From: Candidatus Hermodarchaeota archaeon
Lineage (GTDB): Archaea > Asgardarchaeota > Lokiarchaeia > Sigyniarchaeales > SOKP01
Assembly: GCA_048885925.1 (NCBI GenBank)
Contig: JBHLLG010000015.1
Location: 1-27,285 of the forward strand
Reading direction: 5' to 3'
Length of the DNA: 27,285 bases
Program-made: the position numbers and the translations under genes
The notes under the pieces: model-generated
Told to the model about the DNA's origin: nothing
What the model saw: only the letters and a program-made list of their open reading frames with translations
The model's database searches: none
In this document: positions 6,408 to 22,915 of the stretch, piece by piece
How positions within the stretch are numbered: position 1 is the stretch's first letter
How the letters are laid out: each line of letters opens with the position of its first letter

Positions 6408-9400
6408 TTATTTGAATATTTGCATACTTTCTTTCTTTTTTATTTGTATATTGTCAAGATTCTTTTTTACAATGCCTGCAAATTCTGTTTCTTCTGCCCC
6501 AATCTTATCAATAATTTTAAGTGCTTCTTCAAATTGCCCGATAGCTTTGCTACGTTTTCCTTGGTCTTGATAAATTAATCCAAGATAATTAAGACATTCC
6601 GATTTTCTTTCAAGATGCCCAATTTGGCTGAAAATTTGAGCTGAATCGTTCATATATTTTAAAGCTTTCTTGTATTCCATTTGATCCATGTATATTAACC
6701 CTATTTTTTGCAGAAAATGTGCTTTATACTCTAAATTATTTAATGATTCTGATAGATTGAAACCCTCTTCATAATAACTTAAGGCTTCATCATATTTTTT
6801 CAGGTTAACTTTAATTGAACCCAAATTGTTAAGCGTTTCAATTACACCAACTTTATTTTCAAGATTTAGATAATTTTGATATGCTTGTTGTAACATTTCT
6901 AATGCTTCATCATACCTTATCTGGTTAATATAGATCTCACCGATCTTTTTCGTTGCTCTTGTAATTTCTGTAGGATTTTGTAAATCCTTAAAAATTTTTA
7001 AAGCTTCCTCAAAATGAGTTAGAGCTTCAGAATATTGCATTTTATTCTGGTAAATATTTCCAGCATTCAATAGATGTTTCGCCATACCGGGTAAATTTCC
7101 TAGTTCTTCATCAATATCCATTGCTTGCTCAAGAATTTTTAAAGCTTTTTCATAGTTTTTTTGTTGTTGATAAATCAATCCTATTTTTGAAAGAATTTCT
7201 GCTTTTTTTTCAAGATTTCCTATTTTATCAACCACTTGAAGCATCTCTTCAAAGTTTTTTCTTGCTTCCTCATAACGTTCTTGATATTGGTATATATTTC
7301 CTATTATTTCATGAATGCTAGCTTCTTCATCAAGATCTACTAAATCTTCTGCCGTATATAGTGCTTCTCCAAACCATTTTAGCGCTTCAGGATAATTGAC
7401 TTGATCTAGATAGGTATTACCGATATTTTTAAGTATTTCTACTTTCATATATAAATTTTCTAACCATTCAAATATTTGAAGAGCTTTCTCAAAATAAGAA
7501 ATAGCTAGGGAATAATTAATTTGATATAAATAATTAAATCCTATAAAATTTAAACAGATAGCTTTCTCCTCAAGAAGTCTTTCTTGTTCATAAATTTCTA
7601 AAGCGTTTTCAAACTTTTTTGATGCATCAGAATAATTTCCTTGATCTTGATCAATTAATCCCAGATTAATAATAATTCTAGCTTGACCTTCAACATTATC
7701 TAATTGTTTAAATAAGCTTAAGGCTTCTTCAAATCTAGTTAAAGCTTCAGAATAATTTCCCTGATCAAGATAAATCAATCCTATATTAGTAAGAGAATCA
7801 GCATTCCCATCTAGATTCTCTAATTCCAAATTAATTTTTATTGCTTCTTCAGCTTTTTTTAATGCCTCCCGAGATCTACCTTGTTTACGGTAAATCAAAC
7901 TCAATTTATTAAGATTTTTTGCTTTAGATTCAAGATCATCGAAATGATCATTAATTTCTAATAATTTCTCAAATCTTCTACAAGCTCTTAAGTATTGTTT
8001 CTGCTTTAAATAGATCGATCCAGTCTTTTTATATATTTCAGCTTTTTTCTGAAAATTTCCAAGCTCATCATATATTTTTAAAGAATCTTCAAACCATTCT
8101 AAAGCAAGAGGATATTTTTTTTGTTTTTGATATAAAATACCAATATCAAATGAATAATGAGCTTTCTTTTCTGAGTTTTTTAATTGATCAGCAATCCCAA
8201 TAGCTTCTTGAAAATAATTTAAAGCTTTAGTGAAATTCCATCCCTTTAGAAAAATCACACCTAGATTACGCAGAATATTCGCTTTTTCTTCTAATATTCC
8301 CAATTTATCATATAAATAAAGCGCTTCTTCATTTCTTTTTAATGCTTCTGAGAGTCGATCTAACATTATAAAGATTTCACCGATTTTATTGATTGATTTT
8401 GCTTTTCCCTTTAAATTTCCTAATTTTTCATAGAGATCTGAAGCTTCATAAAATCTTTTCAAAGATTCGAAATACTCTTGTTGTATTATCAAGATATCGC
8501 CAATTTTTCTCAAAATTTTTGCTTTTTCCCTTAAATTTTCTAATTTATCATAAATCTTGTTTATCGCTTCGAATTCTATTAATGTTTGGGAATATTTTTC
8601 TTGATCTTGATGAATTAATCCAATATTTTTAAGATGATGTGCTTTTCTAGTTAAATTCTTTAATTTTTCATCAATTTTTAAAGCTTCCTCAAAGCAATCT
8701 AATGCTTTAATATAATTCTTCTGTTTTCGATAAATTAATCCTAAATTACTAAGAACAATAGCTTTTTTTCTAAAAAGTTTTGATTTCTCTACGATTTGAA
8801 GTGCTTCTTCTAAGGATTTTAAAGCATCTAATAAATTCTCTTGAGCCATGAAAATAATTCCCATTTTAATAAGAGAAGTCGCTTTAGAATTATTATCTCC
8901 AATTTGATCAGCTATACGATTTACTTCTTGTAAACAGTTTAAAGCATCGCCATATTGTTTAAAATGAAAATAGATTTGGTAAGAAATAATAAATTTTATT
9001 AGTTCAGTTGGATTTGGTACATTATCTCGAATCCAATCCATAATTCCTATAGAAAAGTTTTCTGAACTCAAATCAGGCTTGATTTCTAATAAATCTTCCA
9101 ATAATATCGAGATATTTATATCTACTCGATATATGTGAATATCGTTATTCAGTTGTTTAATTTCAATAAGTTTATAATCTAATTTATCCAACTTCAGTGA
9201 TGATTGAATCTTATCAGTATCAATTTCATAAATCTGTTCTTCTACTATATAATCACTAACATGATTTATCCAAATGATATTTTGAAGATTCTGTATAATC
9301 TTCAGTGTCGGAATTATATCAGAATCATGATCGCCAGAATAACCAATAATAACAAGAGTACGTCCATCCATTAGATTATCGAATAGAGGACGCACGTATG

Positions 9401-10007
9401 GTTTTAATTGAAATAAATTTAATTTTTTAATATTAGTACCAAGAAGATTTATTGTATTAACTAATGAGTCTCTTGTATCTTCTTCTAGAATAAAGTTTTT
9501 AGTCGATCCATGAATTTTATAAATAGGAAATTTCCCATTTTTTATTAATTTATGAACTTCACAATATTTTTTAATACTCTTCTCAGTTATAGGTGTTACA
9601 ACTTTTTTCCGAGAAACGCCAGATTGGATAAGAGCTTGTTCGATTAAAAAATCAAAATTAGTCGTTAAAACTGGATGACCTTTTTCAAGCATTTTTGATA
9701 TAAAAAAATGTTGCATATTTGGTTTATCACACAGCTCATAATAATCAAGAATTTTCAATTTTTTATCTAAGCGTTCATTAATTATCTCCAATAACACTTC
9801 GAATTGTAGATATTTTAATTCTAGAATTTTTTTAATTTCAGTTTCTGCACATGTATAATTAATTATGCTTTCTATCATATCTTTAGTTTTTGGTAAAGAA
9901 GAAGGGGGATCAATCGAAACTCCCGAACCTATTAAAAACGTTAAATTATCCCCTTCTTTTAATACTTCTCTAATATTTAATTCATTAGTTATTTCAGCGG
10001 ATTTCAA
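6408..10007 (-). CDS. SIR2-like domain plus long TPR array protein (1199 aa)
   Basis: N-terminal FLIGSGVS..PSSLP, LTTNFD, YKIHGS, IIGYSGD (SIR2_2-type), followed by about 20 TPR-like repeats of about 40 aa. Confidence 0.88.
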   Translation of the reverse strand: MKSAEITNELNIREVLKEGDNLTFLIGSGVSIDPPSSLPKTKDMIESIINYTCAETEIKKILELKYLQFEVLLEIINERLDKKLKILDYYELCDKPNMQHFFISKMLEKGHPVLTTNFDFLIEQALIQSGVSRKKVVTPITEKSIKKYCEVHKLIKNGKFPIYKIHGSTKNFILEEDTRDSLVNTINLLGTNIKKLNLFQLKPYVRPLFDNLMDGRTLVIIGYSGDHDSDIIPTLKIIQNLQNIIWINHVSDYIVEEQIYEIDTDKIQSSLKLDKLDYKLIEIKQLNNDIHIYRVDINISILLEDLLEIKPDLSSENFSIGIMDWIRDNVPNPTELIKFIISYQIYFHFKQYGDALNCLQEVNRIADQIGDNNSKATSLIKMGIIFMAQENLLDALKSLEEALQIVEKSKLFRKKAIVLSNLGLIYRKQKNYIKALDCFEEALKIDEKLKNLTRKAHHLKNIGLIHQDQEKYSQTLIEFEAINKIYDKLENLREKAKILRKIGDILIIQQEYFESLKRFYEASDLYEKLGNLKGKAKSINKIGEIFIMLDRLSEALKRNEEALYLYDKLGILEEKANILRNLGVIFLKGWNFTKALNYFQEAIGIADQLKNSEKKAHYSFDIGILYQKQKKYPLALEWFEDSLKIYDELGNFQKKAEIYKKTGSIYLKQKQYLRACRRFEKLLEINDHFDDLESKAKNLNKLSLIYRKQGRSREALKKAEEAIKINLELENLDGNADSLTNIGLIYLDQGNYSEALTRFEEALSLFKQLDNVEGQARIIINLGLIDQDQGNYSDASKKFENALEIYEQERLLEEKAICLNFIGFNYLYQINYSLAISYFEKALQIFEWLENLYMKVEILKNIGNTYLDQVNYPEALKWFGEALYTAEDLVDLDEEASIHEIIGNIYQYQERYEEARKNFEEMLQVVDKIGNLEKKAEILSKIGLIYQQQKNYEKALKILEQAMDIDEELGNLPGMAKHLLNAGNIYQNKMQYSEALTHFEEALKIFKDLQNPTEITRATKKIGEIYINQIRYDEALEMLQQAYQNYLNLENKVGVIETLNNLGSIKVNLKKYDEALSYYEEGFNLSESLNNLEYKAHFLQKIGLIYMDQMEYKKALKYMNDSAQIFSQIGHLERKSECLNYLGLIYQDQGKRSKAIGQFEEALKIIDKIGAEETEFAGIVKKNLDNIQIKKKESMQIFK
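6450..9000 (-). repeat. Degenerate ~120-bp (40-aa) TPR-like coding repeats, about 20 copies
   Basis: Recurring A..L..IG.IY..Q..Y..AL..FEEAL.I...L pattern; boundaries approximate. Confidence 0.85.
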
Positions 10008-13550: not shown

Positions 13551-14291
13551 ATGAATGAGCACGAAAAAATTATTGAGGAATTGGAATCAGATGTGTCACA
13601 ATTAATAGAGAAAGAATTTGAATCTGGATCAGCAATAATAGGTATTAATATTGGGACACCTGAAGGTACCAAAATTGCTAGTAAATTTAAAAAGTCAATT
13701 AAAATGACAACTGGTGAAATTACAGCTGCAAATAGTAGTCTAGTATTCCTTTCATCAAAAATGCTCAAAGATAGTCTAAATCAAGAAGTAGCATATAACT
13801 TAATTACTGGTGAAGATAGAATTGTACTATCTATTTTAGCTGAAAATATTACTATGATAACTTATTTAAATAGAGAATTAGCAGAACTCGAGGGTATAGA
13901 TTCATATATTAATAAATTAAAGAAGTTAGCTTTACAAATTTCAGCAATAATTGAAACTTCAGATATCTTGAAAGAAGAAATCTTTAAAGGCCTTAAAAGA
14001 GCTATCCCTAATACATTAGTCCTAGCCATTATCACCAAAGATGGGTTGCCAATTAGAATTCAATCCACGATGCCAGAACCAATTTTATCCGCCATAGTAG
14101 CCGCATTATATAATTTATCTGGAGTTTTATTAGAAAAAAGTGGGATGGAATATTGCATAATTGGGGGAGAAAATGGTTCAGTAATTATTCATGATTTAGA
14201 TGAAAATAGAATTTTGGCCCTTGCTGTTCCAGAGGCAGATGAAAGAAAATTAGGCTCATATATCGCCAAAATCAAGGCAATTATCCAATAA
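13551..14291 (+). CDS. Tandem (double) roadblock/LC7 domain protein
   Basis: Two units with roadblock pattern: IIGINIGTPEGTKIAS..EITAANSSL..NLITGEDRIVL and VLAIITKDGLPI..LSAIVAALYNLS..IIGGENGSVIIHDL..ILALAV...LG. Confidence 0.8.
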   Translation: MNEHEKIIEELESDVSQLIEKEFESGSAIIGINIGTPEGTKIASKFKKSIKMTTGEITAANSSLVFLSSKMLKDSLNQEVAYNLITGEDRIVLSILAENITMITYLNRELAELEGIDSYINKLKKLALQISAIIETSDILKEEIFKGLKRAIPNTLVLAIITKDGLPIRIQSTMPEPILSAIVAALYNLSGVLLEKSGMEYCIIGGENGSVIIHDLDENRILALAVPEADERKLGSYIAKIKAIIQ

Positions 14292-15563: not shown

Positions 15564-17768
15564 TTACAATAATTTTTTTAATTCTAATACGAGTGATGAA
15601 GGATTATAGCGATCAAAACGATAGATTTGAGCATTTGCATATTTTTTAAAATTTTTTTTAATTTGATCTGCAGAATAAGTATGTACTCCAAGAGCATGTG
15701 TTGCATATGACTTTTTTGGTTCAAGTACAACCATATGGATTTTTTGTTTTGATAATTTTTTTGTCAGCTCTTTCAGTTCATTAGTAATTAAAGTATAATC
15801 GGTTTCAATCTGAGCAATTAAATCAGGGTATTTCACAGAGATATTTGCGCCACAATCACTACATATAAAGACAATTGGGATAATATTTCGATCCTTCAAT
15901 TTTTCAACTTTTATTAGCTCAGAAACTTTTTTTAAAGCTGCTGCCATTGGAGTATATGATTTTCCCTCAATTTTTTTTAATTTAGTAATAGCCATTTTAA
16001 AATTAACGGTTGGTTTCTGGAGAATAACGGCTTGTTTTCCACGAAATACAATTAAAGCTATTTTATCTCTCTTTCTATACCCTTCTCGATGGAGAGATAA
16101 TATTACATCAGTCATTTGTTTTATTACATAGTACATTGATGCAGAACTATCGAGAACAAAAAAAAGAGCTAAGGGCGCTCTATATTCATAGATTTTGTCC
16201 ATTAAATCATACTTATTAAAATGTATAGGAAAATCAATATCTGTATTATTATATGCTATATTATTTAAATAATTTCTAATTGTAGCGTCTAAAGCCAAAC
16301 TTTTTGGTTCATCCCGAATAGGACTTCTATATGAGACATATCTTCCTTTTTGAGATGAGGATATTTTAATTCTCCTTCCAATTCCTCTTCCACCATAATC
16401 AGATATCTTTCGATCCTTTCTGATATTATCTAAGATTGACGTCATTTTTTTTTCCATTTTATAAATAAATGGTAATGAACCAGTTTTAGGCTCAAAAAAC
16501 TTAAAATCATCTTCAATGGGAATATTTTTAACTTTCCAGCCTCCAGCAGGTTTAGGATTTCTCTTTTTGTTATCAGGATATTTTGGAGGAGGTAACTTCT
16601 GTTCTTGAGATTCTGGAATGTCTACTTTATCAGGATCTACCGATTGTCTTTTAAACTCTTTTTGAGGAGTATCATCATGTTTTAATGGTCCTTCCGTTTC
16701 TCGATTTGGCTGAAGAATTTTTGTGTCTTCATAAGCTTCTTTTATTTTTCCGTAGACTTCAGCGATCTTAGATTTTATTTCCTCTGGTGTCATTTCATAA
16801 TGCAGAGATTGAATTCTATGTTCAAACACTAAATCCATTGCAATATTTAAATCCTCTTCTATTATAATTTTTCTATTGTTTAAGGAAGCATGAGCTCGGG
16901 CGCACCTAATAAATGTGATATCAGCTCTTTGAGAAAAGATCTCTAATTCATTTACGATTTTAGTTACAAACTCATAAACAGAGCTTGGAATTTGAACTTG
17001 TTTTAAGATTTTACGAGCGTTTAGGATATTATTTCTTAATTTTTCTTGTTCTTCTTCAAAAGTCTCAATGAATTCTTTAGGATGATCCTCAAAATCTATT
17101 ACTCTTCTTGTGATTTCAGCACGTAATTCTGGATCTCTTGGTGCCTTTATTCGTACCTCTAAACCAAGACGATCAGCTATCTGTGGTCTGAGATCACCCT
17201 CTTCTGGGTTCATAGAACCAACAAGAACAAATCTTGAGGGATGTGACACTGAAATTCCTTCTCTTTCTATAATATTTACACCAGAAGCTGCAGAATCTAA
17301 AAGTACATCAACAATATGGTCTTGAAGTAGATTAATTTCATCAACATACAGAATACCACGATTTGCTTTAGCTAATAGACCAGGATGCAATGCTCTTATC
17401 CCCTCAGTTAATACTTTATCAATGGACAAACTCCCACAAACCATATCTTCAGTAACCCCTAAAGGTAAATTAACAAGCCACATATCTCTGAATTCCGTTT
17501 TAATTTGCTTTTTTTCCTTTTTTTCAATACAATTTTGACATAGATCTTCGATATCTGAATTAGGATCACATGAGAATTCACAACCCTTAACAACTTCGAT
17601 TTGAGGCATCAATTCAATAATAGATCTTACAGCTGTACTTTTTCCAGTTCCTTGTTGTCCGGTTAAGAGAATTCCTCCTATAGCAGGGTCAATAACGTTT
17701 AGAACTAATCCCATTTTCATTTTCTCCTGCCCGAGAATTGCTGTAAAAGGAAAGTTAATTTTTCTCAT
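15564..17768 (-). CDS. Chelatase ChlI/ChlD-like protein: AAA+ ATPase, Pro/acidic linker and vWA domain
   Basis: FPFTAILGQ, Walker A GQQGTGKS, PGLLAKANRGILYVDEINLL (Walker B), GSMNPEEG, MIDAS DSSAS, YTPMAAAL, SD. ATG at 17768 preferred over TTG at 17795. Confidence 0.9.
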   Translation of the reverse strand: MRKINFPFTAILGQEKMKMGLVLNVIDPAIGGILLTGQQGTGKSTAVRSIIELMPQIEVVKGCEFSCDPNSDIEDLCQNCIEKKEKKQIKTEFRDMWLVNLPLGVTEDMVCGSLSIDKVLTEGIRALHPGLLAKANRGILYVDEINLLQDHIVDVLLDSAASGVNIIEREGISVSHPSRFVLVGSMNPEEGDLRPQIADRLGLEVRIKAPRDPELRAEITRRVIDFEDHPKEFIETFEEEQEKLRNNILNARKILKQVQIPSSVYEFVTKIVNELEIFSQRADITFIRCARAHASLNNRKIIIEEDLNIAMDLVFEHRIQSLHYEMTPEEIKSKIAEVYGKIKEAYEDTKILQPNRETEGPLKHDDTPQKEFKRQSVDPDKVDIPESQEQKLPPPKYPDNKKRNPKPAGGWKVKNIPIEDDFKFFEPKTGSLPFIYKMEKKMTSILDNIRKDRKISDYGGRGIGRRIKISSSQKGRYVSYRSPIRDEPKSLALDATIRNYLNNIAYNNTDIDFPIHFNKYDLMDKIYEYRAPLALFFVLDSSASMYYVIKQMTDVILSLHREGYRKRDKIALIVFRGKQAVILQKPTVNFKMAITKLKKIEGKSYTPMAAALKKVSELIKVEKLKDRNIIPIVFICSDCGANISVKYPDLIAQIETDYTLITNELKELTKKLSKQKIHMVVLEPKKSYATHALGVHTYSADQIKKNFKKYANAQIYRFDRYNPSSLVLELKKLL

Positions 17769-17893
17769 AATTTTAGCAGTATTCTTAAAATTCAATTTTA
17801 TTTAATTTTTTAATCAATCGCTTATTTAAGCAAAGAAAAGCGTAATCAAATAAAAGTTTATCAAAATTAAAAATAAGATGTAAATTATTAAAA

Positions 17894-18881
17894 TTAAAAT
17901 TTCTTAGATAACTGTTTTAATTTTTTATCTAAGCCCGTAATAGATTCATCCCATTTTGAGAGAATATTTTCAACTTGAGGCACAATAGTTTCTTTTTCTT
18001 TATATTCCAAAAAGCCAACATATTCTTTAATATTTTCTATCTTTATAGATGTTTCAGCAACAAACTTGATAATTTCTTGAGTTTGATTTTTTAAAACTTC
18101 TGGAATTCTTGACTTTTCACCCCGTCTAGTTAATGATGTTAAATATTCTTCAGTTCCAAGAAATAATGAATCCATTTGTGTTATCTGTTCATCAATAAAT
18201 TTTTCATAGGTTTTAGGAACTTTGCTTTTTGGAAAGAAATTTGCTACATCGATAATGAATTTTTGCGTTTGTATAACTAACTGCTCCATACTTTCGAAAC
18301 CTTCAATTCTATAATCTACTGTATGATATGACGCTTCAACGCCAGAACTCACATCATCTAATCTAAATATTTGAAAGCCTGGATCATTTTTTAATTGTTT
18401 ATCAGGATCTCCCTTTTTTTCAGCCAATTCTATTTGACGAATTAATCTGACAGGATTAAATACCAATGAAACAGCTAATGGATTGTTTTGTTGATAGGAT
18501 AAAGTTGTTTGAATGTCTATATGGGACATCATCACCTTTTAGCTAAAGCTTGGAAACTCCAAAACTTTTGAAGCCTGGATGAGAATGCCACCATCCCACT
18601 ATAAATTCAGGTGGATCTTTTGAGAACACCTGTTCATCAATAATATATAGGGATTCATAATCTTCATTACTCCATTTATATTGATCAATAACAGCATCTC
18701 GATCCAATTCCTGATGCATAATTGGATAAGCTTCTGTTATAATAACATTATCCCCTTCATTTCTTCCGGTAAAAACACCACTAACTTCTAACCAATCGTC
18801 TTTAGGTATACGTGTATTAGCAAATCTGACTGATGCAGCAACAAATGTTTGATAAGCATGCTTTGGAATTATAACAGTCAT
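17894..18881 (-). CDS. MPN+/JAMM (Rpn11/CSN5-like) metalloprotease interrupted by a 31-nt insert; predicted spliced CDS join(18881..18570,18538..17894), 318 aa
   Basis: Track ORFs 18543..18881 and 17894..18535 are the two halves of one MPN domain. Joined, they read LEVSG...IVGWWHSHPGF|KVMMSHIDIQTTLSYQQNNPLAVSLVFNP...GFQIFRLDD, colinear with the two intact paralogues in this window. Confidence 0.88.
18539..18569 (-). other. Putative bulge-helix-bulge (endonuclease-type) mRNA intron, 31 nt
   Basis: Intron RNA: AAAAGUUUUGGAGUUUCCAAGCUUUAGCUAA. Central helix GGCU/AGCU, bulges UC^A and AA^A, internal hairpin AAAG-U(U)UUGGA-GUU-UCCAA-G-CUUU. It contains an in-frame UAG, and its excision restores the frame and motif. 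Confidence 0.8.
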
Positions 18882-19144
18882 TTTAAAATCATCATTCTTT
18901 CAGTTAATTTTTATTAAATCGATTTTTACAAATTAATACTAATTTTGATATTTATGTCTTTTTCATTTTGTTAAAAAGTATTAAATTTTCTATTTTTCTA
19001 AAATTCAAATAGTAATCATCCCTCCCAATTAATTTTTTAATCCTAAAATAAATTTTTACATTAAATAAGAAATAATTTAAATTGTAAATTTTTCATTATA
19101 ATATTACTGAAACCGTATAATTTTTTAATAAAAAGTGAATTATA

Positions 19145-19801
19145 TTGACTGAAATTGGCTTCATTCCACTTACTAGTCAACTGGGAGTACCTGGTACTAG
19201 TTATAGGCTTCAATTAGGCTTAATTAACGAAAAGTGGGCTGTACGTATGCTCAAAGGGAAAGATCTAATAGACTCCTATATTTTTAAGGATGAAGACGTT
19301 GAGGGTGATTTTCCTAACCAAAATATTATTGTGGGTTGGGTTCTTAGAACGGTGGCAATACCGAATATTAATCCACATCAAGTAATGAAAACAACTCAAG
19401 CTCTTGTTAAGCAAGCACTCCAGAAAAGAGAAGAAAAGAAAGTAGTAGCACCCATATCAGAGACTAAAGAAGTTGAGTTAGAAAAGGTTCCAGAAAGTGA
19501 ATTGAAAAGAGTTAAAGCTCAAGGTTGGGTAAAACAAGAAGGAATGAAAACACAAGAAGAACTTGAGGAAGAACGTAGGCGAGCATTTAAAGAGAGAGTT
19601 ATCGCCAAAAAAGAAGAGGAACCTTTTGTACCTACATCAACTATAACTATAAAAACAACTAGAAATCTACCATCTATTCCTTCGATAGGAGAAACTGTAA
19701 AAGTACAAGTCAGTTCAGAAGGTGAATTTTGTCCTTTTTGCGGTAAAGATTTAGGATTTAAATTTTGTCCATATTGTGGTAAACCTCTGCCACATGATTA
19801 A
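19145..19801 (+). CDS. Hypothetical protein with C-terminal double zinc ribbon
   Basis: FCPFCGKDLGFKFCPYCGKPL at the C-terminus, charged linker, globular N-terminal domain; TTG start. Confidence 0.8.
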   Translation: MTEIGFIPLTSQLGVPGTSYRLQLGLINEKWAVRMLKGKDLIDSYIFKDEDVEGDFPNQNIIVGWVLRTVAIPNINPHQVMKTTQALVKQALQKREEKKVVAPISETKEVELEKVPESELKRVKAQGWVKQEGMKTQEELEEERRRAFKERVIAKKEEEPFVPTSTITIKTTRNLPSIPSIGETVKVQVSSEGEFCPFCGKDLGFKFCPYCGKPLPHD

Positions 19802-20023
19802 TTATCCAATAGTATTATTTTATTTTTAGCTTAAAATTTTATTTATTTTAGTTTAAATGGTACTTTAATTGACTATTTTGAAATTCAAAATTTAAAAAAA
19901 AAATAGAATGTTTTAAAGAAATAAATTTAATTTCTAATATTTTATTCAAATATTTATTTAAAACCAATTAAATTATATATATATCATTAACAAACTATAT
20001 TTTAACTTTTAATAAATATAACC

Positions 20024-21508
20024 GTGATACGATTGACTTCTGACAAGGTAGTTATTATCAAACCAAATGCGTATTATAAAATGCTACTGCATATCCTTCG
20101 ATTTGGCAATAAAGTGAGAGATCGAAAACAGTTCCGTGAATGTATGGGTATAATCATAGGATATCTTGAGGGTGAACCCGATAGAAAGGGAATTAGAGAT
20201 GTGATCATAGAAGATGCAATACCTATCTCTCATGGTGGTGCAATTGAAGTAGCTTTTGCTCCTGAAGATTATGTTACTTTTTCTATGGTAGATGAGGAAT
20301 ATGCTGAAAAAGGTTGGTTTAGTTGTGGCTGGTATCATTCACATCCCGGATTGGATATATTCTTCTCATCAACAGATATTAGAAATCAGTTAGGGTGGCA
20401 AACTCCAAATCCCAGTGCTGTTGGTCTTGTTTTTGATCATACATTTTTAGAAAAGCCTGGAGATTTAGGATTTCGTACTTTTCGATTGGATAATCCTGTT
20501 AAGGGGCAAATGTCTGATTACCATGAAGTTAAAGCGATTGTAGAGCCTCCAGATAATATTGAATTTTATATAAAATTAATGGAATTAATTAATAGTGTTC
20601 ATTCTAAGGAACCTCCAATTTTAGAAATAAATGAATTGCCTGATTTTTTTGTAGATGTTGCTTTTCCTAGTGAAAGTCAAATTTTTTCGAAGACTCCAAA
20701 ATTAGATTCACAAGGAATCCTTAATACGTTAAAGGAGGGAATATCGAATTTTATAGAGCAATCATTTGATCCATTACTTACTTTTCTTAATTCCTGGAGT
20801 GAAAGTTTAACTAAGAATAGTGTTGAGAAAAATATACAAATGAGAAAAGATATAATTACAATAAAGGATAACCTTAGTCAAGGAATTTCTAATTTACAAA
20901 AAGATTTCAAATTTGCATTAAAGGAGAAATTGAATGAATTAGATACATATATTGATGATAAATTCGAAGAATTTGATTCAGATCAAGAATATCTAGTAAA
21001 GTCAATTGATCAAATTAAAATTGAGCTTGAGGAACAATTTAATGTACTTTTTAAAGAAAAACTTAAGGAAAGTATTGATAATATTGTAGATCAATATAAC
21101 AAACTTATAGAAAGTCTTAAAAAAATTAAGGACCAAAGTCTTAAATCTTCTGAATCTTTAACTCAACAAATTCCGATTTTAGATAGATTGCTAAAAATTA
21201 CTAATTCTTTAGGAAATGTAATTCTAAATCAAGTAAATACAAAATCTGAAGAAGAAGTTGACAAATTCACAAAAATTGCTAATAAAATAATAGGAAATTT
21301 GATAAATTTAAATAAAGAAAATAAGAGTTTTCTATCAGATTTAAAAGCAGCAATAATATTATTAGAGAGCTCAAAAACTCCATTACAGAATAAAATAGAA
21401 TCGCAAAATGTCGAAATTAAAAATCTTCAAAAAGAAATATCAAGATTAAACAAAGAAAATCAAGAATTATTAGAAAAAATACAGCAATTTGAAAAAAAGG
21501 GGGAGTGA
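20024..21508 (+). CDS. MPN+/JAMM metalloprotease with long C-terminal coiled coil
   Basis: RECMG (Glu), GWYHSHPGLDIFFSSTD (intact HxH-x7-S-x2-D), about 270 aa helical/coiled-coil tail; GTG start. Confidence 0.9.
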   Translation: MIRLTSDKVVIIKPNAYYKMLLHILRFGNKVRDRKQFRECMGIIIGYLEGEPDRKGIRDVIIEDAIPISHGGAIEVAFAPEDYVTFSMVDEEYAEKGWFSCGWYHSHPGLDIFFSSTDIRNQLGWQTPNPSAVGLVFDHTFLEKPGDLGFRTFRLDNPVKGQMSDYHEVKAIVEPPDNIEFYIKLMELINSVHSKEPPILEINELPDFFVDVAFPSESQIFSKTPKLDSQGILNTLKEGISNFIEQSFDPLLTFLNSWSESLTKNSVEKNIQMRKDIITIKDNLSQGISNLQKDFKFALKEKLNELDTYIDDKFEEFDSDQEYLVKSIDQIKIELEEQFNVLFKEKLKESIDNIVDQYNKLIESLKKIKDQSLKSSESLTQQIPILDRLLKITNSLGNVILNQVNTKSEEEVDKFTKIANKIIGNLINLNKENKSFLSDLKAAIILLESSKTPLQNKIESQNVEIKNLQKEISRLNKENQELLEKIQQFEKKGE

Positions 21509-21514
21509 GGATTA

Positions 21515-22915
21515 ATGGTTAAAAATAAATCAAATGAAGATTCAGAGGGAAAAATAGTAAATAATAAAGGCAAATCTGAAAAAGGAGAAATTTTCATTAA
21601 GAAGGAAGCTTTCAGAAATATGTTTACTCACGTTTTACGGTTTGGAAATAATGCATTGGAAAAAAGTATAGAAGTGTTAGGTATTTGTATAGGAAAATAC
21701 TATATTACTGATAATAAAATAGTAATAGAAAATGCTATACCTTTAATTCACGGAGATAAAGTAGAAATTGGATTTGATAAAGAAATATATGAGTTATTTG
21801 AACAAATAAAAAGGAAATATCCTTATGATTTAGTTGGATATTATCATTCCCATCCCTCCTGGGGATTGTATCTCAGCGAGAGTGATTTAAAGAATTTACA
21901 GTATTTTCAACGAGATGACTTCCCATATGGTTTTGGGATTGTATTTGATCATACACTTATGGGTAAAGAGGGTAATTGGGGATTTGACATTTATAGATTG
22001 GATGATTATTCCAAAGCTGAAACGTATCATTCAGTATCGTTTGAAATTGAAATCCCCTCCTCCTTAGAATATTTTAAATGGGTTCAAAAATTTGTAGAGG
22101 ATTTTCAGAAAAAAGATCCTATCCTTATTAAAGAAATTAATGAATTTGTAGAACCAATTCCTGAAGACTTGCAAGAAATTCCCATATCCGAAGAAATACC
22201 ATTAATTGAAGAACAACAAGAAAGATCACCCCAAATTGCCCCGATTATTTCAGGAATTGAACAAGGAATAGAAAAATTTTCTAATATTTTCACAGATATT
22301 ATTGAAAATCAAATGAAAGTATGGATTAACGACATAAATCAAGGAACCTCTAAAGGAACTGAATATATTAGTAAAGCAGTAAGTAAAATGAAAGATGCAA
22401 TGAATTCTGGCCTTTTAAAAGTCGATAATTGGTTCAAGAAAACTTTAAATGAAACTGTTAATGATTTTAAACGAAATCTTTATAAATCCGTCGATAAGCG
22501 AATTGGAAGTAATAAAGATCTTGTAAAAGAGATATCTAATATGAAAAATGATTTTATGATAGCCTTAAGCAATTTAATCGAGGATAATATTAAAAACATC
22601 AATAATGAAACTCAACCTTTAATGACATCATTATCAGAAGATTTACAAGAAAATATTCAAACCCAATTAAAAATCCAAGAAACAATAACTGATCTTAAAT
22701 CAAATATAGTAGCAATAGATAGCCAAATTAGTTCACAAGCTCAAGATCTTGAAAAAAAGATGGAATTCTCAACAACACAATTACAGAAAATTATAGATGA
22801 AAAAATTGAAAAATTAAGCACGGAATTGCAACCATTTAAAGAGTATAACTCAGAAATAAAAATCTTACTTGAAAAACTTCAAAAAGTTATTACAGGTTTT
22901 AGAAATTTAAGTTAA
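21515..22915 (+). CDS. MPN+/JAMM metalloprotease with long C-terminal coiled coil (tandem paralogue)
   Basis: IEVLG, GYYHSHPSWGLYLSESD intact, FDH..GF.IYRLDD shared with the upstream gene; GGAGTGAGG SD; 6-bp gap to the upstream gene. Confidence 0.9.
   Translation: MVKNKSNEDSEGKIVNNKGKSEKGEIFIKKEAFRNMFTHVLRFGNNALEKSIEVLGICIGKYYITDNKIVIENAIPLIHGDKVEIGFDKEIYELFEQIKRKYPYDLVGYYHSHPSWGLYLSESDLKNLQYFQRDDFPYGFGIVFDHTLMGKEGNWGFDIYRLDDYSKAETYHSVSFEIEIPSSLEYFKWVQKFVEDFQKKDPILIKEINEFVEPIPEDLQEIPISEEIPLIEEQQERSPQIAPIISGIEQGIEKFSNIFTDIIENQMKVWINDINQGTSKGTEYISKAVSKMKDAMNSGLLKVDNWFKKTLNETVNDFKRNLYKSVDKRIGSNKDLVKEISNMKNDFMIALSNLIEDNIKNINNETQPLMTSLSEDLQENIQTQLKIQETITDLKSNIVAIDSQISSQAQDLEKKMEFSTTQLQKIIDEKIEKLSTELQPFKEYNSEIKILLEKLQKVITGFRNLS

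Follow-up and report, generated by a model that had tools for sequence, protein, structure and literature searches.

A gene for a JAB/MPN+ metalloprotease of the JAMM type is broken, in the middle of its catalytic motif, by a 31-nucleotide (nt) insert in the stretch of Candidatus Hermodarchaeota archaeon DNA analysed here (27,285 nt, positions 1 to 27,285 of contig JBHLLG010000015.1, assembly GCA_048885925.1; hereafter the window). Positions 17894-18881 of the minus strand very probably form one functional gene, interrupted by an endonuclease-spliced messenger RNA (mRNA) intron of the bulge-helix-bulge (BHB) type. The insert lies between two minus-strand open reading frames (ORFs), 18570-18881 and 17894-18538, that are the halves of one JAB/MPN+ gene:

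18570-18881 (minus strand): exon 1 of the JAB/MPN+ gene, with its ATG at 18881 and its end at ...WWHSHPGF, from the ORF list, the Pfam match and collinearity with intact orthologues
18539-18569 (minus strand): proposed intron of 31 nt, AAAAGUUUUGGAGUUUCCAAGCUUUAGCUAA, belonging to class A of the two classes described below and bringing a stop codon into each of two exon frames
17894-18538 (minus strand): exon 2, 214 codons that start KVMMSHID, with the stop codon at 17894-17896, from the ORF list

Read without splicing, the upstream ORF (18543-18881, minus strand, 112 amino acids) ends in ...WWHSHPGFKSFGVSKL* and the downstream ORF (17894-18535, minus strand) begins (K)VMMSHID. An in-frame TAG at 18545-18543 falls within the insert, as does the TAA of the downstream frame at 18541-18539. 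An earlier note on this DNA, made from the letters of the window, had proposed a split JAMM gene resembling Rpn11 and CSN5 and the removal of exactly these 31 nt. The sequence is as it described: excision of 18569-18539 gives HSHPGF|KVMMSHID in a 318-codon frame with a single terminal stop and the motif HSHPGFKVMMSHID at residue 99, in the spacing HxH-x7-S-x2-D that was also correctly claimed for two paralogues nearby (HSHPGLDIFFSSTD and HSHPSWGLYLSESD). The JAMM motif E...HxH-x7-S-x2-D is complete only once the insert is removed. The upstream half matches Pfam JAB (PF01398) at E = 4.3e-10 over profile positions 5-98 of 117 only, and an intact orthologue matches it over positions 5-116 (E = 6.4e-15). 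Exon 2 is 66-80% identical to full-length orthologues of the same genus, whose frames continue upstream where the insert is absent. The best solved-structure matches of the protein are, as the earlier note had guessed, CSN5 (6.2e-10) and Rpn11 (6.4e-9), with the motif aligned; no Pfam family matched the C-terminal ~190 amino acids above the cut-off. The predicted product is a CSN5/Rpn11-like JAB/MPN+ metalloprotease; any isopeptidase activity on ubiquitin-like modifiers and any place in a lid or signalosome-type complex are likewise predictions.

The earlier note had tied its reading to orthologues that have or lack the insert, and both kinds exist. A search of 53 genomes of the same genus gave a match in 50, of which 49 are full-length orthologues; the last, in genome G068, is a remnant and was excluded. 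The gene is uninterrupted in 38 of the 49 and reads HSHP(G/D)F(K/R)(V/I)M(M/L)S(H/Y)(I/V)D. The other 11 species carry an insert at one and the same site, exactly at the F|K codon boundary: G000 (the window's own genome), G001, G004, G005, G041, G044, G047, G053, G056, G065 and G066. Their inserts measure 31 nt in seven cases, 30 nt in three and 29 nt in one, and cause a +1 or +2 frameshift or, in the 30-nt cases, in-frame stops. Only by taking out the entire insert is the protein restored in 11/11, with the same motif as in the 38 intronless orthologues, and no single frameshift or readthrough rule fits the three lengths together with the stops. In two of the 11 sequences the insert boundaries cannot be slid at all. 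Four JGI metagenome contigs found by a pattern scan have the insert too, one of them as a new sequence variant; two of the four represent the lineage of G005, G044 and G065, with an insert identical to that of G005. The intron is restricted to this one genus: an order-wide search of 153 genomes gave a match in 134, and the 213/214-codon split was present in none of the 84 matching genomes outside the genus. Seven further loci of 59-66% identity are all uninterrupted. As a separate observation, the intact orthologue of G014 (L003, G014:C11, upstream of 1240) has no ATG, GTG or TTG where the others start (MTVII...), with a frame that stays open farther upstream (...GDLTVIIIPK), which a shifted start or a start codon of unusual type may explain.

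The gene is under purifying selection with and without the insert. Both exon frames are open in 11/11 bearers, with no extra stop or frameshift. The median ratio of nonsynonymous to synonymous substitution rates (dN/dS) is 0.092 in 46 bearer-bearer pairs vs 0.094 in 33 intronless pairs, these being the pairs with usable dS among 55 bearer pairs and 40 sampled intronless pairs, at a synonymous divergence often >1 and up to saturation. The relaxed selection that, for the earlier note, would have marked a simple pseudogene is thus not seen in the bearers. The insert is itself constrained well above the neutral expectation, with a mean identity of 74% among class A inserts, where four-fold sites of the host exons average 37%, and of 91% among class B inserts, where they average 58%, or ~40% for class B hosts of different clades. 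A contrast to the 11 bearers is the copy of G068 (L053, G068:C2:11866-13444), a real pseudogene that retains residues 127-318 only, has an in-frame TAA and has lost the N-terminal MPN half.

The predicted RNA structure of the window places the two insert ends in the bulges of a BHB-like motif with the following elements:

18572-18575 (minus strand): 5' strand GGCU of the central 4-bp helix H, exonic (Gly codon plus first base of the Phe codon), paired with 18541-18544 in the minimum-energy fold
18541-18544 (minus strand): 3' strand AGCU of helix H, intronic
18569-18571 (minus strand): 5' bulge UC^A, unpaired between H and the intron hairpin; the insert begins after its second base
18538-18540 (minus strand): 3' bulge AA^A, with the end of the insert behind the second base; an A-A mismatch comes next in this window
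18545-18568 (minus strand): intron hairpin h', 7 + 3 bp with loop GUU, directly stacked on H
18578-18594 (minus strand): 5' arm of the exon-exon helix, Trp-His-Ser-His-Pro codons, paired with 18521-18536 in the fold
18521-18536 (minus strand): 3' arm of the exon-exon helix, Val-Met-Met-Ser-His codons

The unconstrained fold of the RNA of 18595-18520 has an energy of -26.1 kcal/mol (z = -3.58), and none of 200 shuffled sequences was equally stable. Its elements are the GGCU/AGCU helix, onto which the 7+3-bp intron hairpin is stacked, the 3-nt UCA bulge and, between the exons, a long helix. The central helix (18575-18572 with 18544-18541) and the hairpin of ~10 bp that the earlier note had drawn by eye are therefore both recovered. 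Its 3-nt bulge on each strand held on one side only: the UCA bulge is clean, while the 3' site appears in the window fold as a 2x4 internal loop (CA/AAAA). In the canonical register, the 3' site of the window reads as the AAA bulge, then the A-A mismatch, then two C-G pairs. The note's relaxed exon side was likewise right as to the relaxation and wrong as to the form, which is HBh'-like and not bulge-helix-loop. Within 18521-18594 the Met codons of KVMM (AUG) complement the His codons of HxH (CAU). To a large extent the exon-exon helix thus follows from the protein motif itself and is found in intronless genes too, and this inbuilt complementarity may be the reason why the site can host such an intron. 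No Rfam family matched 18300-18800 at E up to 1. A group I or group II intron or an intein was considered and rejected; at 29-31 nt the inserts are too short, and their length is not always a multiple of three.

Comparison of the 11 bearers supports the central helix. In the alignment of the 11 sequences (A1) H is paired in 44/44 cells, with one G-U in G065. Two of its four pairs show compensatory double changes, GGCU/AGCU becoming GACU/AGUU in G001 and GGUU/AACU in G004, so that the compensatory changes the earlier note had in mind are indeed found in the central helix. Over the whole proposed structure six pairs have double changes vs 2.1 in column shuffles, and six were reached in 0/500 shuffles. 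When the 3' partner strand is shifted by 1-3 columns, pairing drops from 85% to 22-51%. Comparison with the intronless orthologues fixes both insert ends, and in 11/11 sequences each end is found 2 nt 3' of a strand of H. Archaeal EndA, the splicing endonuclease, cuts after the second base of a bulge, and the symmetric 2-nt placement is as expected for its two active sites. The unconstrained minimum-energy fold contains H in 7/11 sequences, and in the other four the H-constrained fold lies 1.3-4.0 kcal/mol above the minimum.

The inserts fall into two classes. Class A has six members including the window (L001, L005, L035, L037, L046, L048), with a clean 3-nt 5' bulge, an intron helix of 5-7 bp stacked on H and three compensatory pairs; the five h' pairs next to H are kept in all six sequences. 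Class B has five members (L013, L015, L031, L032, L042), with a clean AAA bulge closed by CCU/AGG and a clean exon helix. The U-A pair that closes the 3' bulge on the exon side forms in 7/11 sequences, those in which the Pro codon is CCU, and of the three h pairs one is seen in 7, one in 9 and one in all 11.

Synonymous codon choice in the exons follows the proposed pairing. The Gly/Asp codon ends in C in 10/11 bearers vs 4/38 intronless genes (Fisher p = 1.2e-6, relatedness ignored), among which U is commonest (16/38), and the single bearer with U at this position has a compensating A in its intron. The Lys codon is AAG in 9/11 bearers, and third-position G occurs in 16/38 intronless genes (15 AAG, 1 AGG; p = 0.037). 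A synonymous Ser-Ser pair of the outer exon helix is complementary in 9/11 bearers vs 16/38 intronless genes (p = 0.037).

The genome of the window encodes both enzymes that such an intron would need. RtcB is present (PF01139, 569.6 bits), and there is one EndA gene of 198 amino acids (PF01974, 101.7 bits; contig C22, L022, 1177-1773). Among solved structures this EndA best matches chain B of 3p1z, the Aeropyrum pernix heterotetramer (E = 5.5e-38), in an alignment that spans the N-terminal loop and sets 'NKPR' opposite the A. pernix 'EKPR', with K and R aligned to K44 and R46. According to passages in PMC3241643, K44 and R46 of this Crenarchaea-specific loop allow A. pernix EndA to cleave relaxed and bulge-helix-loop substrates. 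Two EndA paralogues of ~205 amino acids occur in 21 of 25 genomes of the genus, the bearers G001, G004 and G005 included. These pairs fit the (alpha-beta)2 type with an L1 loop that sections of PMC5829648 give for Asgard EndA; part of a preprint (bioRxiv 10.64898/2026.10.13.758758) counts two paralogues in 44/60 Asgard genomes. According to parts of PMC5829648 and PMC3241643, an (alpha-beta)2 EndA that has the specific loop accepts the HBh' and hBH forms of the motif as substrates. Aragorn predicts 31 transfer RNA (tRNA) genes in G000, 19 of them with introns, whose boundaries are unreliable and without clean BHB motifs.

From these elements we propose the following course of events. In the pre-mRNA, GGCU at the end of exon 1 would pair with AGCU at the 3' end of the intron into the 4-bp central helix, with the hairpin of the intron body on one side of it and the exon-exon pairing on the other. 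EndA would cut 2 nt beyond each helix strand, at UC^A and AA^A, and RtcB would ligate the exons. The product would read ...HSHPGF-KVMMSHID..., with the zinc-binding and catalytic motif of the JAMM protease restored, and the predicted exon junction in the spliced RNA is ...CCAGGCUUC|AAGGUGAUG... The intron of 31 nt would be set free, probably in circular form. Because the unspliced mRNA yields only a 112-amino-acid fragment without the Ser/Asp half of the motif, the active enzyme would depend on splicing.

A number of observations weigh against this reading. The fully canonical hBHBh' motif occurs in 0/11 sequences: six are HBh'-like and five hBH-like, which passages in PMC5829648 and PMC6379350 name as relaxed forms. 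Beside the 3' bulge the exon helix of class A is weak (A-A in four sequences, C-A in two). Class B has its 5' bulge enlarged to 5-9 nt, with no intron helix adjoining H, and constrained folds of this class put 3 bp of h' next to H only when an enlarged bulge of 5-6 nt comes before them. RNAalifold prefers a closing helix other than H, between GCUU at the end of exon 1 and AGGU at the start of exon 2. This helix is also pairable in 44/44 cells, but its changes are one-sided (wobble) only, with no double changes, and the codon data favour H over it because GCUU/AGGU would accept U as well as C. The Fisher tests on codons ignore the relatedness of the sequences. A second EndA was not found in the 95%-complete G000 by PF01974 or PF02778 (E up to 10) or by jackhmmer among ORFs of at least 90 amino acids. 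Cleavage, ligation and the responsible enzyme are moreover what we infer from DNA sequence. A search of sequencing runs for the stretch listed no RNA run that contains it (one run of unknown kind shared 0.20 of its sequence words), and four runs gave no reads over 18250-18850, which speaks neither for nor against splicing.

A scan of the whole genome (3.9 Mb; the window has 27.7% G+C) for BHB geometry that joins two open frames of at least 60 codons each also weighs on this side. With h and h' of at least 3 bp there were 324 in-frame sites vs 332 and 354 out-of-frame; with h' of at least 5 bp, 785 vs 808 and 852; and with both frames closed inside the insert, 627 vs 691 and 720. The scan recovers the JAMM-gene intron among hundreds of chance sites in this 28% G+C genome. 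In-frame sites are thus no commoner than out-of-frame ones genome-wide, so the coincidence of structure and motif in a single sequence is weak and the case must rest on the comparison of orthologues. The earlier note's argument that the same 31 nt follow independently from RNA structure and from protein motif is accordingly weak for the one sequence it had and becomes strong only with the orthologues.

Four other explanations of the insert can be set against an EndA-spliced intron. The gene could have been split into two separately translated polypeptides, an N-terminal one of 112 amino acids that ends at the insert stop and a C-terminal one that starts at ATG-ATG, reassembling as an active MPN+ domain; the hairpin would then be a spacer with another role, e.g. 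in coupling translation or stabilising the RNA. The two halves each keep an open frame and are conserved in 11/11 bearers, ATG ATG directly follows the insert in 11/11 with a GGU(G/A/U)A stretch ahead of it, the length of the insert is free of a multiple-of-three rule, and the closing helix between exon 1 and exon 2 is fully pairable too. Yet the intronless genes share the ATG ATG (the first in 38/38, the second in 37/38) and the AARGUN before it, where they encode KVMM and represent no gained start, and the purine stretch is merely 0-3 nt from the ATG. The break falls within the seven residues between the HxH zinc ligands and Ser-x-x-Asp. The split also leaves unexplained the covariation of the Gly codon with the 3' end of the insert, the C bias of 10/11 vs 4/38 and the 2-nt offsets in 11/11, and we regard it as quite unlikely. 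Excision of the insert from the RNA by a nuclease other than EndA, with a partial and coincidental likeness to a BHB, would accommodate the relaxed motif of every member, the lack of an intron helix next to H in class B, and a loop and stem sequence that is kept beyond the needs of pairing and could reflect a sequence-specific factor. However, a 4-bp helix with cuts 2 nt past each strand is the signature of EndA, and we know of no other archaeal pathway for removing such inserts. HBh' and hBH are, according to passages in PMC5829648 and PMC3241643, known substrates of (alpha-beta)2 EndA. We consider another nuclease very unlikely.

The ribosome might instead skip the hairpin of 29-31 nt and make the same protein without RNA splicing. 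Translational bypassing of this kind is exemplified by gene 60 of phage T4 and the 'byp' elements of yeast mitochondria, and the inserts resemble bypass gaps in size and in forming a hairpin. The start of the insert repeats the start of exon 2 in some bearers (AA/AAA, Lys), where a matched take-off and landing codon is conceivable. Over all 11, though, the bases common to the two starts number 0 in two sequences, 1 in five, 2 in two and 3 in two, so that the required matching codons are impossible in 2/11 and a single base is common in five more. Counted from take-off, the distance to the first in-frame stop is not conserved either (insert offset 3 in class B; 9, 24 or 27 in class A; no stop in G001), and bypassing does not account for a helix that joins the Gly codon to the insert's 3' end; it is in our view extremely unlikely. 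A chance insertion in a redundant paralogue, making the gene a pseudogene, or a misassembly would be in keeping with two intact JAB paralogues within 4 kb and with the decayed copy in one genome of the same genus, G068. Eleven genomes, each assembled separately, and four metagenome contigs nevertheless share the site of the insert, which disposes of the assembly error that the earlier note had named as a danger; bearer dN/dS is 0.092 with both exon frames intact in 11/11, and the insert is conserved far above four-fold sites. Pseudogene and assembly error are refuted as far as sequence data allow and keep next to no probability.

Turning to the history of the presumed intron, we find it in a single gene. 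An nhmmer profile of the insert matches its own site only in G000 (E = 3.9e-12; next best 1.3), and a covariance model (R1) run on the 53 genus genomes matches one site in each of the 11 bearers. One further weak match of R1, in G014 (L087, G014:C56:7439-7476; E = 0.018, 31 bits), lies inside an uninterrupted ORF of 345 amino acids and is taken as chance. We rejected a multi-copy mobile element on these grounds, as the intron profile and the covariance model match the JAMM gene only. An exon tree of 49 rows, built by a quick method, requires at least nine changes in the presence of the intron. Trees that unite the class B bearers (five) or every bearer (11) are rejected (p = 3e-140 and 2e-4, respectively), with the reservation, which again tells against us, that these groups were chosen with the tree already in view. 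Members of class A are found in each of the four main clades and members of class B in two of them, and the flanking codons of a bearer resemble those of its intronless sister gene and not those of other bearers. These data fit a single old gain, early in the history of the genus, with the intron under strong constraint and precisely lost many times thereafter; an alternative is that the intron by itself spread laterally into this one site. The two classes scattered over the clades, the introns 74-91% alike vs 37-58% at four-fold sites, the host-like flanking codons and the restriction to one genus led us to a bolder idea, namely a mobile, site-specific BHB intron that moves between species and acts as an EndA/RtcB-dependent, XBP1/HAC1-like switch for an active protease. 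We hold this idea to be doubtful.

The closest known case to the proposed EndA-spliced intron is that of cbf5. A cbf5 pre-mRNA intron of Crenarchaeota was reportedly described by Watanabe in 2002. Both are short BHB-type introns in a coding frame, with a motif that is often relaxed and a removal that restores a conserved protein; both are patchy among related species, a pattern that for cbf5 was read as gain and loss, and both are linked to a broad-specificity hetero-oligomeric EndA. Passages in Yokobori 2009 (PMC2738675) likewise give the crenarchaeal cbf5 intron an often relaxed motif, a hetero-oligomeric EndA and a patchy distribution. The JAMM-gene intron differs in its host, a JAB/MPN+ protease and not a pseudouridine synthase, in an Asgard and not a Thermoproteota lineage; it splits a catalytic motif and comes in two sequence classes at one site. 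The splicing of cbf5 was shown experimentally, whereas that of the JAMM gene is predicted. The cbf5 gene of G000 is uninterrupted.

The intron also resembles archaeal tRNA BHB introns, which part of a preprint (bioRxiv 10.64898/2026.10.13.758758) reports to be abundant in Asgard archaea: a 4-bp helix, cuts in the flanking bulges, half of the motif exonic, a similar size, presumed processing by EndA and RtcB, and repeated gain or loss. Unlike them it sits in an mRNA, with an exon helix made of codons and no tRNA body for recognition, and its profile matches nowhere else in the genome and the same gene only across the 53 genus genomes. An mRNA substrate of the splicing endonuclease outside cbf5 is also found in Haloferax volcanii, where sections of PMC7714728 describe a BHB intron in the 5' untranslated region of HVO_1309, confirmed in vivo and in vitro. 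Removal of that intron matters for expression, but it lies in an untranslated leader and does not interrupt a reading frame.

Beyond archaea, the unconventional splicing of XBP1/HAC1 removes an intron of 26 nt that IRE1 cuts out under stress regulation, with RtcB or a tRNA ligase joining the exons. The proposed intron is like it in outline, with a very short non-spliceosomal intron, two structured cut sites, a tRNA-type ligase, and a change of the downstream frame that makes an active protein depend on splicing; part of the literature links RtcB to XBP1 mRNA splicing. The endonuclease and the recognition motif are different, the introns are evolutionarily unlinked, and stress regulation is a feature of XBP1/HAC1. 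With bypass elements the insert has in common a hairpin-forming coding gap of some tens of nt in a conserved gene, but most members lack the matched codons for take-off and landing, and an exon codon covaries with the 3' end of the insert.

The searchable full-text literature, to which supplements and subscription journals do not belong, gave no earlier report of an intron of BHB type for any JAMM gene or any protein-coding gene of Asgard archaea. A 2020 study states, in a passage of PMC7714728, that cbf5 is the only coding-region archaeal example. The mechanism that we propose is a known archaeal protein-enzyme pathway; its chemistry is not new, the host gene and the Asgard lineage are. If true, this would be the second coding case after cbf5, in another gene and in an Asgard lineage, and in the nearest archaeal kin of eukaryotes now known the tRNA-splicing machinery would mature mRNAs as well. 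It would also mean that relaxed HBh' and hBH motifs can persist in codons and shape synonymous codon choice. Gene callers split such genes, and a eukaryote-like gene of deubiquitinase type would be annotated as two fragments. The 11-12 natural variants, with their compensatory changes and two structural classes, are a ready mutational series for the substrate range of Asgard EndA. The origin of spliceosomal introns is not directly addressed, because the mechanism is a known protein-enzyme pathway.

The neighbourhood of the interrupted gene contains the two intact paralogues and further genes, as follows:

20024-21508 (plus strand): intact JAB/MPN+ paralogue, 494 amino acids, Pfam JAB E = 3.9e-10, motif HSHPGLDIFFSSTD
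21515-22915 (plus strand): intact JAB/MPN+ paralogue, 466 amino acids, Pfam JAB E = 1.1e-9, motif HSHPSWGLYLSESD
15564-17795 (minus strand): Mg-chelatase-type AAA+ plus VWA protein, 743 amino acids, from Pfam
19145-19801: protein with a C-terminal double zinc ribbon, 218 amino acids, from Pfam
6408-10007: protein with a SIR2_2 domain and many TPR repeats, 1199 amino acids, from Pfam
13551-14291: Roadblock/LC7 domain protein, 246 amino acids, from Pfam

The three JAB/MPN genes are clustered within 15564-22915 of the window, and the two intact ones have long C-terminal tails. Together with the AAA+/VWA and zinc-ribbon genes, this cluster may form one system.

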